Assembly (NCBI GenBank): GCA_964403245.1
Contig: CAYOEW010000002.1
Span: 1 to 49,568 of the forward strand
From: an uncultured Lachnospiraceae bacterium
Lineage (GTDB): Bacteria; Bacillota; Clostridia; Christensenellales; UBA1242
Length of the DNA stretch: 49,568 nucleotides
Reading direction: 5' to 3'
Shown: positions 25,052 to 31,220 of the stretch, in pieces
How the letters are laid out: each line of letters begins with the position of its first letter
Numbering within the stretch: position 1 is the first letter of the stretch
Notes under the pieces: model-generated
What the model saw: only the letters and a program-made list of their open reading frames with translations
Told to the model about the DNA's origin: nothing
Database searches by the model: none
Made by a program: the position numbers and the translations under genes

Positions 25052-26446
25052 ATGGAAGAAAACAAAAATTTGACTATGGACAAAATTGTTAATCTTGCAA
25101 AGACAAGAGGTTTTGTTTATCCGGGAAGCGAAATCTATGGCGGACTCGCAAACAGTTGGGACTATGGCCCAATCGGGAGCGAATTGAAAAAGAATATCAA
25201 AGACCTTTGGTGGAAAAGATTTGTTCATGAAAATGAATACAACACAGGAATTGATGCTGCAATCATCATGAACCCAAAAGTTTGGCAAGCAAGTGGACAC
25301 CTTGCTGGTTTTTCTGACCCGCTCATCGACTGCAAAGAGTGTAAAACTCGTCACAGAGCCGACCATTTGGTTGAAGAATATGTCAAAGAACACAACCTTG
25401 ACATTATTGTCGGAGAGATGAAAAATGAAGATTTTGAAAAATTCATCACCGAAAATCATGTAAAATGTCCAAAATGTGGCAAAAGCAATTTTACTGGTCT
25501 TCGCAATTTCAATTTGATGTTCAAAACATTTATGGGTGTCACAGAAGACGCAAAGAGTGAAGTTTATCTTCGTCCTGAAACAGCGCAGGCAATGTTTGTT
25601 GATTACAAAAACGTTGTAAGAACTCAAAGACCAAAAATGCCGTTTGGAATTGCTCAAATGGGAAGAAGTTTCAGAAACGAAATCACACCAGGGAACTTTA
25701 TTTTCAGAACTCGTGAATTTGAACAGATGGAACTTGAATTTTTCTGCAAACCTGGAACAGACCTTGAATGGTTTGCTTATTACAAAGAGCAGATGAGAAA
25801 TTGGCTCTATGACCTTGGCATCAAGAAGGAAAATTTGAGAGAAAGAGATCACTCACCTGAAGAACTTTGTTTTTACAGTAAAGCAACTTGCGACTTCGAG
25901 TTTTTATTCCCATTTGGTTGGGGTGAACTTTGGGGAATTGCAGACAGAACAGATTATGACCTGACACAACATCAAAAATTCAGCGGAGAAAACATGGAAT
26001 ACATCGACCCAATAACAAACGAAAAGTTCATTCCATATGTCGTTGAACCTGCTTTGGGCGTTGACAGAATGTTTTTAACGGTGCTTTGCAACGCATATGA
26101 TGAAGAAGTGATTGGCGAAAATGACACAAGAGTTGTTTTACATTTGATTCCTGCTCTTGCACCATATAAGGTTGCTGTGCTTCCACTTTCAAAGAAACTT
26201 TCCGACAAAGCAAAAGAAGTATACAGAAATCTTTCAAAAGAATTTAATTGTGATTATGATGAATCTGGTTCAATCGGAAAACGTTATCGCCGTGAAGACG
26301 AAATCGGCACTCCTTTCTGTGTGACAATTGATTTTGACACCCTTGAAAACAACACTGTGACAGTCCGTGACCGCGACACAATGCAACAAATCAGACTTCC
26401 AATTAACGAATTGGAAAGTTATATTTCAAAAGCAATCAAATTTTGA
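25052..26446 (+). CDS. glyQS: glycine--tRNA ligase (homodimeric class II type)
   Basis: [42 protein letters not shown]... and an [25 protein letters not shown] class II motif; about 464 aa. ATG 25052 follows GAAGGA. The TTG at 24992 in the ORF track is unlikely to be the start. Confidence 0.92.
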
Positions 26447-26577
26447 TTGAATGGCATAAAAAATTTTTGAAAAACATATATTTAATTGAGTTTAAATTGT
26501 TGACATTCCAAAAAAATATGACTAAAATTAGAGTGTAACAATCAAATTACAAATTTTATTTAAAAGGAGAAACAAAA

Positions 26578-26799
26578 ATGGCTAAAAAATCAGATTACTT
26601 TGGTTTGGATTTCATCGTAAGTCTTATTCTTGCAATCATTCCAGTAACTTCATGGCTTTGCGGAGCAATCACAAGAATCCAAGAAGGAAAAATTGTTGCC
26701 GGCATTTTGAGATTGGTTCTTGGCTTCAACATCATCTGGATCTGCGACCTTGTTCTTATGATTACAAACAAGCACATTTTAAGACTTTTGGATTGCTAA
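26578..26799 (+). CDS. small membrane protein (73 aa, two TM helices)
   Basis: AAAGGAG RBS. The promoter TTGACA, 17 nt, TAAAAT lies about 50 nt upstream, and a terminator follows directly. Confidence 0.6.
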   Translation: MAKKSDYFGLDFIVSLILAIIPVTSWLCGAITRIQEGKIVAGILRLVLGFNIIWICDLVLMITNKHILRLLDC

Positions 26800-26812
26800 A
26801 TCGCAACAAAAA

Positions 26813-26842
26813 AATAATCTCTATTTTGGAGATTATTTTTTT
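26813..26842. terminator. bidirectional intrinsic terminator between convergent genes
   Basis: AATAATCTC, 7-nt loop, GAGATTATT, flanked by an A-run and a T-run. Confidence 0.7.
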
Positions 26843-26845
26843 ATT

Positions 26846-28141
26846 TTACTTTTTTATATCTTCTGTTTTCATGAGTTGTTCAGCATTGTTTGATGCATTA
26901 TGTTTAATCGGTTTCCATTCAACTTTTTTGAAAATTGCGGAGTATGTAAGTGGAATAAGAGTAATCATAAACAATGGATAAGCAAACATTGAGAGAATTT
27001 TTCTGAAAGGCTTTGCTTTGATTCTTTTCCAATCTTTCAAAACTGCAAGTGAGCCATACACAAACATTCCAGCATAAACCGACAAAAATAATGACACAAA
27101 ACTGATTGCAAGTGAGCCAAGTTGAGCCAAAACTGACGCCCCGCCCAAAATCAGAAAAATGCTTTTGACTGTTTTGATGAGTTGAACAAGAAGAGCATAA
27201 CTTGTCGAGAGCATTGGAAGGGGTGAAAGCGTGATGAACATGTCATAAAATCCAAAATTCAATCGTCTGAAAAATTGAAGAATCATGCGAAGTCCCAACG
27301 CCCCAAAAACCTGATATCCACCTTTTTGCCATCTCATGCGTTGACGATAAGTCTGTTTCCAAGTTGCAGGCTGTTCATCATAAAAAACTGCGTCATCACA
27401 ATATGCAATTTTATATCCCGCGATTGCTTTGTCGCAAGAAAATTCAAGGTCTTCGGTGATTTTTTTATATTTCCATCCATCGCTTGGATTTATCACTTCG
27501 CTTGACATCAAAAATCCCGTCCCGCTGATGTGTGTTGACAAATTAAAGAAATTTCTTGGACCATGAGTAAATCTGCATTCTCTGATGAAACCAATTGACG
27601 CTCCCATTGACCAAAGACTTTCATCAAAGTTTTTCGAAGCACGATATGATGTTATGATTTTTTCTCCGCTGTCAAACGCTTTGTTCATTTCTTTGATGTA
27701 ATTCTTTTCCAAAATGTTGTCTGCGTCAAACACAAAAAATCCGTCTGGATGATAGTCAGGAAATTTTTCCGCAATCCCGCGAAGCAATAAATCGAGAGCG
27801 TATCCTTTTCCAATTTTTGTCAAGTCATGTCTTTCAAACACATCTGCTCCCATTGATCTTGCAATTTCAGCAGTTTTGTCACCTTCCGAGCAGTTGTCAG
27901 CGCAAACAAAAATCCTTAATTTTGATTGATCATAATCTTGTCTTTTAATACTTTCAATAAGTTGTCCAATAACCGCTTCTTCATTTCTTCCCGCAATCAA
28001 AATGCCATATGTGTGATCTTCTTTTGCAGGTCCATATTTCTTTTTATAAAAAAATCCAACAATCACATACACAATTTGATATAAAACCAAAACTGATGCA
28101 AGAGTTGTAAGAATGATGTTGATGACTCCCCAAATACTCAT
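26846..28141 (-). CDS. membrane-embedded processive family-2 glycosyltransferase (polysaccharide synthase-like)
   Basis: One N-terminal TM helix; the GT-A core has FVFDADNIL (DxD) and QRMRWQKGG (Q..RW); C-terminal TM bundle. ATG 28141 has GGGAG 6 nt upstream. The ORF-track start at 28168 falls inside the -10 box. Confidence 0.85.
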   Translation of the reverse strand: MSIWGVINIILTTLASVLVLYQIVYVIVGFFYKKKYGPAKEDHTYGILIAGRNEEAVIGQLIESIKRQDYDQSKLRIFVCADNCSEGDKTAEIARSMGADVFERHDLTKIGKGYALDLLLRGIAEKFPDYHPDGFFVFDADNILEKNYIKEMNKAFDSGEKIITSYRASKNFDESLWSMGASIGFIRECRFTHGPRNFFNLSTHISGTGFLMSSEVINPSDGWKYKKITEDLEFSCDKAIAGYKIAYCDDAVFYDEQPATWKQTYRQRMRWQKGGYQVFGALGLRMILQFFRRLNFGFYDMFITLSPLPMLSTSYALLVQLIKTVKSIFLILGGASVLAQLGSLAISFVSLFLSVYAGMFVYGSLAVLKDWKRIKAKPFRKILSMFAYPLFMITLIPLTYSAIFKKVEWKPIKHNASNNAEQLMKTEDIKK

Positions 28142-28166
28142 GATAATCTCCCAAATTTCCAAAGGC

Positions 28167-28196
28167 ATTATACATGAAACGGGGGGGTAGTGTCAA
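28167..28196 (-). promoter_or_regulatory. consensus promoter of the GT2 gene with a homopolymer in the spacer
   Basis: Minus strand: TTGACA, CTACCCCCCCGTTTCATG (18 nt), TATAAT, then 19 nt including GGGAG before the ATG. Confidence 0.6.
28181..28187. repeat. G7/C7 homopolymer tract
   Basis: GGGGGGG on the plus strand. It is the longest G/C run I found in this AT-rich window; the others are 5 nt or shorter. Confidence 0.95.
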
Positions 28197-28329
28197 GACT
28201 TATAATCAAAAATGCTCGATTTTTGTCGATTTTTTGCATTTTTTTTACATTTTTTATCAAAATTTTTAACAAAAAAATTATTTTTTGATATTTTTTATCA
28301 ATTTCCACACAATATTTTTGGAGGGAAAA

Positions 28330-28503
28330 ATGAAAGACGAAAAATGCAATTGTGGTGTGAGATGCAATGTCAACGAATGTGTTTTCAATGAATGTGGAAG
28401 CAAATGCAACAAAGAAACAATCGACATCTCAAAGGGAACAAACGAACCACTTGAAGATGGCGACCAACCACACTACTGCAAAAGTTTTAAAAGTAAAAAC
28501 TAA
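28330..28503 (+). CDS. small Cys-rich protein, DUF1540-like (57 aa)
   Basis: GGAGGG RBS. MKDEKCNCGVRCNVNECVFNECGSKCNKETIDIS has the C..C.V..C.....C....I pattern I associate with DUF1540. Confidence 0.55.
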   Translation: MKDEKCNCGVRCNVNECVFNECGSKCNKETIDISKGTNEPLEDGDQPHYCKSFKSKN

Positions 28504-28507
28504 AAAA

Positions 28508-28545
28508 AAGACAGCATTGAAACCTAAAAAATGCTGTCTTTTTTT
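28508..28545. terminator. bidirectional intrinsic terminator
   Basis: AAGACAGCAT, 13-nt loop, ATGCTGTCTT, flanked by A8 and T7. It overlaps the last codons of the minus-strand gene. Confidence 0.7.
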
Positions 28546-29246
28546 GTGAGAAACGTCCAACCAAGCAATGTTCGGAAAAACACCGCCCAATATGTCAATC
28601 TTGCACTATCCAAAAATTCTTTTGCAAGAGAAAGTTCTTTGTCTGACAAAATTTCTTTCATAAATTCCACCGCTTTTTTTGAAGCGTCTTTTTCAATTTG
28701 CACTTCCCGATATTTCATGAAAAGCGAAAGCAAAAACAACAAAAGTCCAACTCCCAAAAATCCAAGTCCAACAAAAAGCCAAATTTGTTCTGAAAGAATG
28801 TTGAAAACATTGAGAAGACTGAGCACAATCCCTGCCAACACAGCTGGCATAAAGAAAAACCCGCAAATTTTGACGCGATATCGAAGTGACCAATGTTTTT
28901 TGAGTTTGTCACCTTCAAAATCTTGTTTTGCATGACCAAGTTCGTGTGAAACAATCGCAACAGAGGTAATGTTGCTGGAATACATTGTTTCTCTTGAAAG
29001 TGCGACAACGCCAGAACTGTAATGATCTTTGAATTTTTCACAACTTGCAATTTTGAGTCTTCCCCCAAAATGACGTTTGTTGATTTCTTGCACATATTCA
29101 AGAGTGTTTGTTTGATATGAAAGAGAAATTTTTGAATTTTCTTGATATTTCTCCATGAAATTTTCGGCAGAAAAACTTGCCACAGCAAGCGCGAAGCAAA
29201 GAAGTAAAACAAAAACAATCACAACTGCAATCACAACATATGTCAT
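28524..29246 (-). CDS. membrane zinc metallopeptidase, YugP-like
   Basis: N-terminal TM helix, HELGHA zinc motif (VAIVSHELGHAKQD) and two C-terminal TM helices; about 240 aa. Confidence 0.75.
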   Translation of the reverse strand: MTYVVIAVVIVFVLLLCFALAVASFSAENFMEKYQENSKISLSYQTNTLEYVQEINKRHFGGRLKIASCEKFKDHYSSGVVALSRETMYSSNITSVAIVSHELGHAKQDFEGDKLKKHWSLRYRVKICGFFFMPAVLAGIVLSLLNVFNILSEQIWLFVGLGFLGVGLLLFLLSLFMKYREVQIEKDASKKAVEFMKEILSDKELSLAKEFLDSARLTYWAVFFRTLLGWTFLTKKDSIF

Positions 29247-29252
29247 GCCTAT

Positions 29253-29281
29253 ATTATATATGAAAAAGAAAATTTAATCAA
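29253..29281 (-). promoter_or_regulatory. near-consensus promoter positioned for a leaderless transcript
   Basis: Minus strand: TTGATT, 17 nt, TATAAT, then ATAGGC, then ATG (29246). No SD. Confidence 0.55.
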
Positions 29282-29324
29282 CTTTTATGTCGCAACATGC
29301 AAATTTTGTCACACAAATTCACCT

Positions 29325-31220
29325 TTATGTCAACAAAAGCACAGTGTCACCTTTGTTAAGTTTTGTGCCTGCCGGCGGAAGTTGTTCTTTGATGATTCCA
29401 CCATTTCCGTCAATTTCATAGTTAAGCCCAAGAGTTTTAAGTTTTGCAACCGCATCCGCAAGGCTGTATCCTGTCACCTGTGGCATCAAAACTTCTTCCA
29501 AAACAACACTCGCATCATCTTTTGGAATGTCATATAACTCAAACAAATTTGTGAAAAACTCCTTCCCATATGGCGCTGCAACAAGCGAGCCATAATATGC
29601 TCCGGCGCTTGGTTCATCAACCATAATCATAAAAAGATATTCCGGATTGTCGGCAGGATACGTCCCGATGAATGACGAAATATATTTTCCCTGCGCAATT
29701 CGACCATTTTCGTCATATTTTTGCGCCGTTCCTGTCTTGCCACCAATATTGTATCCTTCAACAAACGAATAATCCACTTTTTTGTTTTCTGCTTTTTGAA
29801 GAAGCATGTTGAGTGTCTTGCTTGTCTTTTGCGACAAAATCCTTTTTTCGCTGGATGAAGGTGTGTATTGGATTTCTCCATTCACATCAGTCACATTTTT
29901 GATGATTGTTGGAGTTTTGTATATTCCTCCGTTTGTAAGTCCTGCAACAATTGAAAGAAGTTGGATTGGCGTGACAGCAATTGCATGACCAAAACCCATT
30001 CTCGCCAAATCAACATTCTTCACATTTGATTTTGACATGACAATCCCCGCACTTTCACCTTTGATTGTGATGCCGGTCTTTTGCCCTATGCCAAATTTTT
30101 GCATATATTCATAAAATCTGTCAACACCCAAACGAAGCGCAAGGTCCATGAAACAGCAGTTACACGAATTTGCAAACGCTTCTGCAAGCGTCTGACTTCC
30201 ATGTCCAATTGAACGCCAACATTTGATTTTTTGCCCATCCACCATGCGATATCCGGGGCAATAAAAGTGGTCATCAAGAGAAGTTACCCCTTCTTCAAGC
30301 GCGGCGGCAATTGTCAATATTTTGAAGGTTGACCCCGGTTCATATGTGTCTGTGACAGCCTTCATTTTGGATTGTTCAAAAAGTGCGTAAAGGTCATCCC
30401 TTGGAACATCATTAAGGTCAAAACTCGGCTTTGAGGATATCGCCAAGATTTCGCTTGTTTTTGCATCCATGACAATCCCTGTCACACCTTTCGCCTTTTG
30501 CTCTTCATACGCTTTTTTCAAGACTTGTTCCAACAAAATTTGAATTTTGCTGTTTGCTGTCAATTTGACATCACAACCCGCAATCCCATTCACATAATAT
30601 CTGATTGTTCCGCCAATTTCTTTTCCTTGCAGGTCGCTTTGAACATAACTGTATCCGTCAATTCCTGTCAGATATTCATCAAGATATGCTTCCAAACCCG
30701 CCTGGCCAACATTGTCGATTGATGTAAACCCCAAAATTTGCGTAAGCAAGTCGCCATAGACATAATATCTTCCGACATTTTCTGTCAAATAAACGCCATC
30801 AAGTTGTTTGTCATAGATTTCTTGTGCAATGTCATCTTCAATCTGCATTTTCAACAAAACTTCCGAAATGTTTTTCTTTGAAACCTTCTCCAAAGTTTTT
30901 TCGGCGTCAAGTTCCAAAATTTCAGCAAGGACCTTTGCTGTTTTTTCTGCATCTTTGACTTCGCGTCCGCGCACATAGACGTCATAAGTTGTGTAACTCA
31001 CAGCCAAGGTGTCGCCTGTGCAATCAATAAACTTTCCACGCGGTGCGGTCATTTTCAAGTCCCTCGTCCACTGGTCTGTCGCACGTTGTTGCAGATTTTT
31101 TCCGTTTATTATCTGAACAACAAAAAGCCTTACACCAAGGCTACAAAAGATGAATATCAAAACAAGCAAAATCGCTTTTATTCTCTTTTGCAACGATGCT
31201 AATGTGTAAGGCTTTTGCAA
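29325..31220 (-). CDS. class B penicillin-binding protein (FtsI/PBP2B-type transpeptidase) with a C-terminal PASTA domain
   Basis: Motifs STFK (EPGSTFKI), SCN (ANSCNC) and KTGTA. The PASTA-like tail is VLMPQVTGYSLADAVAKLKTLGLNYEIDGNG. GGAGG lies 5 nt before TTG 31220, just after the upstream stop; the TTG start is inferred. Confidence 0.88.
   Translation of the reverse strand: MQKPYTLASLQKRIKAILLVLIFIFCSLGVRLFVVQIINGKNLQQRATDQWTRDLKMTAPRGKFIDCTGDTLAVSYTTYDVYVRGREVKDAEKTAKVLAEILELDAEKTLEKVSKKNISEVLLKMQIEDDIAQEIYDKQLDGVYLTENVGRYYVYGDLLTQILGFTSIDNVGQAGLEAYLDEYLTGIDGYSYVQSDLQGKEIGGTIRYYVNGIAGCDVKLTANSKIQILLEQVLKKAYEEQKAKGVTGIVMDAKTSEILAISSKPSFDLNDVPRDDLYALFEQSKMKAVTDTYEPGSTFKILTIAAALEEGVTSLDDHFYCPGYRMVDGQKIKCWRSIGHGSQTLAEAFANSCNCCFMDLALRLGVDRFYEYMQKFGIGQKTGITIKGESAGIVMSKSNVKNVDLARMGFGHAIAVTPIQLLSIVAGLTNGGIYKTPTIIKNVTDVNGEIQYTPSSSEKRILSQKTSKTLNMLLQKAENKKVDYSFVEGYNIGGKTGTAQKYDENGRIAQGKYISSFIGTYPADNPEYLFMIMVDEPSAGAYYGSLVAAPYGKEFFTNLFELYDIPKDDASVVLEEVLMPQVTGYSLADAVAKLKTLGLNYEIDGNGGIIKEQLPPAGTKLNKGDTVLLLT

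Follow-up and report, generated by a model that had tools for sequence, protein, structure and literature searches.

Homopolymer contingency loci are textbook features of a few Gram-negative mucosal pathogens and of mycoplasmas, whereas invertible promoters and methylation dominate discussion of phase variation in gut commensals. In Mycoplasma hyorhinis, poly-A tracts act as promoter-spacer switches on the vlp lipoprotein antigens, and opc of Neisseria meningitidis also carries a tract of the promoter-spacer type. Elsewhere in Neisseria, the -10 and -35 elements of fetA enclose a poly-C tract, and porA has a poly-G tract (PMC5320596). A second layout, with poly-G inside the coding region, is described for LOS and capsule glycosyltransferase genes of Campylobacter jejuni, Haemophilus and Neisseria (PMC8437040, PMC8355987). 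In Staphylococcus aureus, simple-sequence repeats in icaC and in the ica promoter region switch ica, the PNAG synthase operon (PMC7911514).

We analyzed a 49,568-nt stretch of DNA (hereafter, the window) from a MAG of the genus Ca. Caccovivens/UBA11517, family UBA1242; the assembly comprises 797 kb in 56 contigs, at 36% G+C and 75% completeness. Caccovivens corresponds to GTDB genus UBA11517 of the family UBA1242, order Christensenellales (PMC8035907), and UBA1242 genomes are ~1 Mb in size, metabolically depleted and proposed to depend on partner cells (PMC12306168). Our literature search found no paper tying UBA1242 or Caccovivens to phase variation, nor one tying Clostridia more broadly to a homopolymer strategy.

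Like Neisseria fetA/frpB and porA, a GT2 gene in this window has a G/C homopolymer between its -35 and -10 boxes. It differs from the neisserial genes in tract length (7-9 at this gene and its orthologues versus 10-14 there), in its host, a Gram-positive-lineage Clostridia MAG, and in its output, which would be a glycan synthase and not an outer-membrane protein. With M. hyorhinis vlp it shares a -35/-10 homopolymer for surface components in a reduced-genome, host- or partner-dependent Bacillota relative, but the tract here is poly-C/G and the predicted product a glycan synthase. S. aureus ica offers a likeness in the reversible, repeat-mediated ON/OFF switching of a synthase-dependent exopolysaccharide in a Gram-positive; the ica repeats, however, are a tetranucleotide repeat within an accessory gene and a 5-nt motif that influences binding of a regulator, and the synthase has no homopolymer in its own core promoter spacer. 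On the comparisons that follow, we consider it likely that the tract in this window is a simple-sequence contingency tract, placed in a sigma-A-type promoter whose gene encodes a stand-alone GT2 resembling exopolysaccharide synthases, and that it functions as a slippage-driven switch.

On the minus strand, positions 28196-28167 read TTGACA-CTA-C7-GTTTCATG-TATAAT. The -35 hexamer TTGACA (28191..28196) and the -10 hexamer TATAAT (28167..28172) are both perfect consensus, and they enclose an 18-nt spacer (28173..28190; in full, CTACCCCCCCGTTTCATG). The C7 homopolymer (28181..28187; G7 on the plus strand), which is the proposed slippage site, begins 3 nt downstream of the -35 box. A ribosome-binding site, GGGAG (28148..28152, minus strand), comes 14 nt after TATAAT and 6 nt before the ATG at 28141, where a monocistronic gene for a 431-aa GT2 protein (P0001; 26846..28141, minus strand) opens. 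The hexamers, the spacer, the tract, GGGAG and the ATG had all been named in the original prediction, and all were exact in the re-read sequence. The further statement that this was the longest G/C run in the window, with the others at 5 nt or shorter, was borne out by a run count, in which it is the sole G/C run above 5 nt in 49.6 kb.

The genes on both sides of the GT2 gene lie on the opposite strand: a divergent, Cys-rich DUF1540 gene upstream (28330..28503, plus strand, 57 aa; PF07561 on an identical Logan contig) and a convergent 73-aa ORF downstream. The GT2 gene therefore needs a promoter within the 189-bp gap at 28142-28329. In a consensus scan of 26000-30500, the single 12/12 match was the TTGACA..TATAAT pair at C7, which is the only strong promoter in the gap, and the homopolymer sits inside the spacer of this predicted promoter of the gene; the same scan returned a weaker promoter-like site, TCGACA-16-GATTAT, 33 nt farther upstream. 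From the 12/12 hexamers and the orientation of the gene, transcription would start near 28160 with a leader of ~19 nt. In the ORF listing, the GT2 ORF opens at an ATG that falls within the -10 box (28168); the more plausible start is 28141, where a ribosome-binding site precedes the ATG. An exact look-up of the 431-aa protein returned no match; gene callers had used the upstream ATG, which gives 440 aa.

Directly 3' of the GT2 stop lies an AT-rich hairpin followed by a T run (AATAATCTC-caaaata-GAGATTATT; 26808..26837, minus strand). It is likely a terminator, possibly a bidirectional one, and it was missing from the consensus scan because it has fewer than three G-C pairs. Two other features were considered for this region and rejected. 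An extended -10 (TGn) does not apply to the C7 promoter, as TG directly abuts TATAAT, and a riboswitch or leader RNA was dismissed because nothing in 26400-28600 reached the Rfam threshold. A second hairpin (AAAAAAAGACAGCATT..AATGCTGTCTTTTTTT), at 28505-28545 on the other side of the DUF1540 gene, where this gene meets a convergent Zn-peptidase gene (PF04298), overlaps the stop codon of the latter and probably terminates transcription from both sides.

The product had been predicted to be a membrane-embedded GT2 enzyme, and sequence and modeled structure both agree with that class. P0001 matches the Pfam families Glyco_tranf_2_3 and Glyco_trans_2_3 (PF13641, PF13632), and its topology comprises one N-terminal and several C-terminal transmembrane helices. 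The motifs D139-A-D141, E230-D231 and Q267-R-x-R270-W271 are invariant among 55 homologues and correspond to the GT-A signature of DxD, (T)ED and QxxRW. NCBIfam matches were weak (EpsU, 105 of 700 bits; PgaC_IcaA, 56 of 422 bits), and the equivalog cut-offs for EpsU, PgaC/IcaA and CelA were all far from reached. In sequence, P0001 is marginally related to the cellulose synthases in the PDB (E = 0.002).

The AlphaFold2 model of P0001 (pLDDT 92.6, pTM 0.90) packs a transmembrane bundle on the GT domain, as in solved synthases. Its best Foldseek matches in the PDB are hyaluronan synthases (8smn, 8smm and 8smp) and the cellulose synthase BcsA (4p00), with E values of 5e-16 to 1e-13; chitin synthase Chs1 is also among the top matches, and the full set spans E values of 5e-16 to 1e-8 and TM-scores of 0.5-0.65 on the query. 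What P0001 has in common with class I hyaluronan synthases, BcsA and chitin synthase, all membrane-integrated processive GT2 enzymes, is the transmembrane bundle of its model and a GT-A domain carrying the D, DxD, (T)ED and QxxRW motifs; P0001 differs from these enzymes in being only 14-18% identical to them and in having no PilZ or accessory domain. The invariant motifs and the matches of the predicted structure support the assignment of P0001 as a stand-alone, membrane-integrated synthase-type GT2.

The gene is accessory within the genus, with a match at E ≤1e-90 in only 26 of 154 genomes. A metagenome scan with the GT2 protein yielded distant relatives only (identity ≤46%) and no additional strains. 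In an Eggerthellaceae MAG (L036/L088), a C14 run lies at position 2811, ~25 nt past the end of a distant GT2 homologue that is 39% identical.

By composition, a lone G7 run is not improbable: under an i.i.d. model, 0.46 G/C runs of at least 7 are expected per window, so the G7 run by itself is not significant. This is the starting point of the principal alternative, in which C7 drifts slowly, below the hypermutability threshold in a repair-proficient cell, the 18-nt promoter is constitutive and length differences are ordinary divergence with little regulatory meaning. We regard this alternative as improbable, though a serious competitor, and the evidence on it begins with the genome as a whole. 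G/C runs in the MAG number 1225 at length 4, 162 at length 5, 7 at length 6, 1 at length 7, 2 at length 8 and 2 at length 9, with a second mode at the long end. Markov models of order 3-5 were contaminated by the long runs themselves, so the expectation was taken from the observed decay in run counts from length 4 to length 6. Spacers of the form TTGAC[AT]-N16-19-TAnAAT make up 0.2% of the genome and yet contain two of the five runs of at least 7 (P roughly 4e-5), which speaks against slow drift.

Each of the five runs of at least 7 in the MAG belongs to an envelope gene, either in its coding region or in its promoter spacer, and three of these genes encode glycosyltransferases. Relative to the decay of shorter runs, long tracts are over-represented, and they are concentrated in or before genes for two GT2 proteins, a GT28-like protein, a lipoprotein and a membrane protein; Campylobacter, Haemophilus and Neisseria likewise have G/C tracts in several glycosyltransferase genes of one genome. 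The second promoter-spacer tract, a G9 at C32:5855-5863, lies in TTGACA-AAAATTTGC-G9-TAGAAT (18-nt spacer) upstream of a Big_3 (Ig-like domain) lipoprotein gene, and it is a closer analogue of M. hyorhinis vlp than the GT2 promoter is. At C39:2599-2607, a G9 occupies codons 30-33 of an MGDG-synthase/GT28-like glycosyltransferase gene, whose ATG frame ends just past the tract while the other 355 codons remain readable in a different frame. With G8 the gene would be in register, and the G9 looks like a phase-OFF allele. The protein cluster of this gene is a singleton. The remaining two tracts are in frame: a G8 at C27:5375-5382, within a GT2 paralogue 37% identical to P0001, and a G8 at C25:9869-9876, within a TMEM164-like membrane protein of the TMEM164 family. 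The C27 tract is absent from the relatives of the paralogue in its 90% cluster, so it may be a recent or chance occurrence.

We then read the upstream and coding sequences of GT2 orthologues from 12 other species of the genus (58-64% identity). Counting the window, nine of the 13 orthologues have a G/C tract of 7-9 at this gene, against a background of ~1 per 160 kb (~5 per 800 kb), and the tracts fall in at least three positions: the promoter spacer, codons 2-4 and mid-gene. Inspection of orthologous promoters for variable tracts, as the original prediction had recommended, thus revealed C9 at the same place in four other species, all with 19-nt spacers: TTGACA-AAT-C9-GCGGTGG-TATAAT in G138, TTGACT-C9-ATACCTTTGT-TAAAAT in G116 and TTGACT-C9-GCCATTGATG-TATTAT in G114 and G057; in one of these, C8 and C9 alternate (see below). 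G160 instead has G8 in codons 2-4, immediately 3' of ATG GC, and G074, G096 and G063 have an in-frame G9 of Gly codons at mid-gene (nt about 474-519). These four orthologues, together with the C39 and C27 genes of the MAG, represent the Campylobacter-type frameshift layout, from which the copy in the window differs in having its tract in the promoter. Four orthologues (G050, G124, G129 and G051) have no G/C tract; G051 has T7 in its spacer. The recurrence of long tracts at one gene, at three positions, speaks against slow drift, whereas the G050 orthologue, whose promoter has an 18-nt spacer without any tract, favors it. In another species of the genus, a 20-nt spacer with G9 (TTGACT-TTGCAC-G9-TATTG-TATAAT; L023, G001:C2, positions 926-957) precedes a different gene, for a 541-codon GT2-like membrane protein.

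The orthologues also bear on a different account, in which the tract acts other than by its length, as a regulator site, through DNA structure or through spacer composition, or in which transcription from another start makes length changes incidental. In five species the tract begins 0 or 3 nt downstream of the -35 box, a conserved placement that fits such a role, as does the weaker promoter-like site 33 nt upstream. The sequence around the promoter tracts, however, is unrelated between lineages (CTA..GTTTCATG, AAT..GCGGTGG, ..ATACCTTTGT and ..GCCATTGATG), which leaves the homopolymer and the hexamers alone as common elements. Moreover, the coding-region tracts of the same gene in other species can act by frameshift only, and a search of the region returned no Rfam element. 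We consider a role unrelated to length very unlikely, and switching through spacer length remains the reading we favor.

Length variation was judged from independent public assemblies encoding identical or 90%-identical proteins, in which the assembly consensus hides minority alleles. For the species of the window there are three assemblies only. L024 (SRR10277277) has C7, the same as the window, and these two may derive from one sample. L152 (SRR10277276), which encodes a protein of the same 90% cluster (P0146), has TTGACA-CTA-C8-GTTTCATG-TATAAT, that is, a 19-nt spacer between identical hexamers and with identical flanks. The original prediction had been staked against a tract that is invariant across strains, and this is not what we found, given C7 and C8 within one 90%-identity protein cluster. 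A sample of C7, C7 and C8 is also compatible with slow drift, and the C8 strain differs from the window by ~12 substitutions in 245 nt and by an A8-to-A7 change elsewhere in the gap; with a background so diverged, the C7/C8 pair alone cannot tell rapid switching from slow divergence.

The orthologous tracts flip on identical backgrounds. Among 14 sequences of the G114-type promoter, taken from the representatives of two species and from 12 contigs with a gene for P0122 or P0123, C8 is found in six and C9 in eight. Of the contigs, assembled from different runs, eight match at every position of 1,881 nt except in the tract, where four have C8 and four C9; no other column of the alignment contains an indel, leaving aside an offset at the edge of the locus, and five A7/T7 runs in the same locus are invariant. 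This contrast speaks against slow drift.

A coding-region tract behaves in the same way. In the G160 type, G8 stops the ATG frame after 9 codons and is seen in the representative genome and in 3 samples, while G9 restores a 433-aa protein and is seen in 9 samples displayed and 11 further ones; the G8 and G9 backgrounds are identical over about 1.39 kb. The gene call for the G8 form (P0008, 401 aa) opens inside the coding sequence, and its cluster also includes P0137 and P0139, both called at 399 aa. At the mid-gene position (nt 474-482; L136 versus L143), two sister sets of strains have the same upstream region; one has a continuous G9 (P0021), and in the other (P0017) the run is broken, as GGGGAGGGG, with a change of Gly to Glu. 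The interrupted tract should be stable, locking the gene in frame. Two further observations concern gene calls of uneven length: in the P0035 cluster, an orthologue is split into genes of 98 aa and 333 aa on one 300-kb contig, with an intact 432-aa form in the same 90% cluster, and P0036 (312 aa) and P0145 (429 aa) form a similar short/long pair.

As all of these data are short-read metagenome assemblies, in which G/C runs of 8-9 are harder to call, the length differences might be thought to reflect sequencing or assembly error at homopolymers. The lengths nonetheless recur in independent assemblies (G8 in 4, G9 in at least 9, C8 in 6 and C9 in 8), no A7/T7 run in those contigs is ever miscalled, and C7 appears both in the window and in an independent Logan assembly. 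We give error as the source of the differences almost no credence. With the tract varying between close strains while its flanks stay constant (C7/C8 in the species of the window, C8/C9 at the orthologous promoter), the patterns among strains and orthologues are the footprints expected of slipped-strand phase variation at this GT2 gene family. They lend support to the candidate switch of the original prediction, in which slipped-strand changes in spacer length would act on the GT2 gene.

How fast such a tract would slip is a separate matter. Neisseria and Haemophilus are repair-proficient, with longer tracts, and Campylobacter is not known to have mismatch repair. The MAG, which has both mutS and mutL (contig C12), resembles Neisseria and Haemophilus in this respect and is unlike Campylobacter, and loss of mismatch repair was accordingly rejected as a cause of hypermutability; both genes were also present in 99 of 100 genus genomes searched. 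Their presence is a further point in favor of slow drift. C7 is shorter than the C8 and C9 tracts that vary in the orthologues, and, given mutS and mutL, its slippage rate may be modest, below that of the 8- and 9-mers.

To relate tract length to output, we turned to the spacer preference of the genome's own promoters. Among the 27 perfect TTGACA..TATAAT promoters in 797 kb, the spacer is 17 nt in 20 and 18 nt in 5, and among 99 relaxed matches it is 17 nt in 64, 18 nt in 26 and 19 nt in 3. These counts accord with the earlier assertion that 17 nt is optimal, and they indicate that an 18-nt spacer is usable and that 19 nt is rare. (With 27 perfect promoters, the promoter set of this MAG is unusually consensus-like for so small a genome.) By this measure, the C7 promoter would probably be ON or at a medium level, and the C8 promoter OFF or low. 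More generally, 18 nt (C7 here, C8 in the G114 type) would be a working, sub-maximal state, and 19 nt would be weak or off. A 17-nt spacer at the GT2 promoter was absent from every lineage, the 20-odd observations being all 18 or 19 nt, so the system may toggle mainly between 18 and 19.

These data are compatible with a model in which one C would be gained or lost through replication slippage, shifting the -35/-10 spacing to 17 nt with C6, 18 nt with C7 or 19 nt with C8. The spacing would in turn set the use by RNA polymerase of an otherwise perfect promoter, and lineages would switch, heritably and reversibly, between a higher level (18 nt, perhaps 17) and a low or zero level (19 nt) of what is presumably a surface sugar polymer, the former being the putative ON state.

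The mechanism itself is well known; that an unstudied lineage holds a member of it is new and, judged from the sequence comparisons, well supported. A broader reading, to which we assign roughly even chances, is that Ca. Caccovivens/UBA1242, gut Clostridia with reduced genomes and a probable dependence on partners, has a genuine simple-sequence phasome in which homopolymers have come to control one stand-alone exopolysaccharide synthase through three or more independent routes, differing among species. A phasome of this kind would point to strong and repeated selection for the stochastic switching of a surface glycan, for example against phages or host IgA, or for attachment to partner cells, and its switching would be legible in public metagenome assemblies. 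If confirmed, the finding would show that homopolymer switches can be surveyed without cultivation in thousands of public metagenomes, and it would mark the GT2 surface polymer as a trait on which selection fluctuates, in bacteria suspected to live at the expense of other cells.
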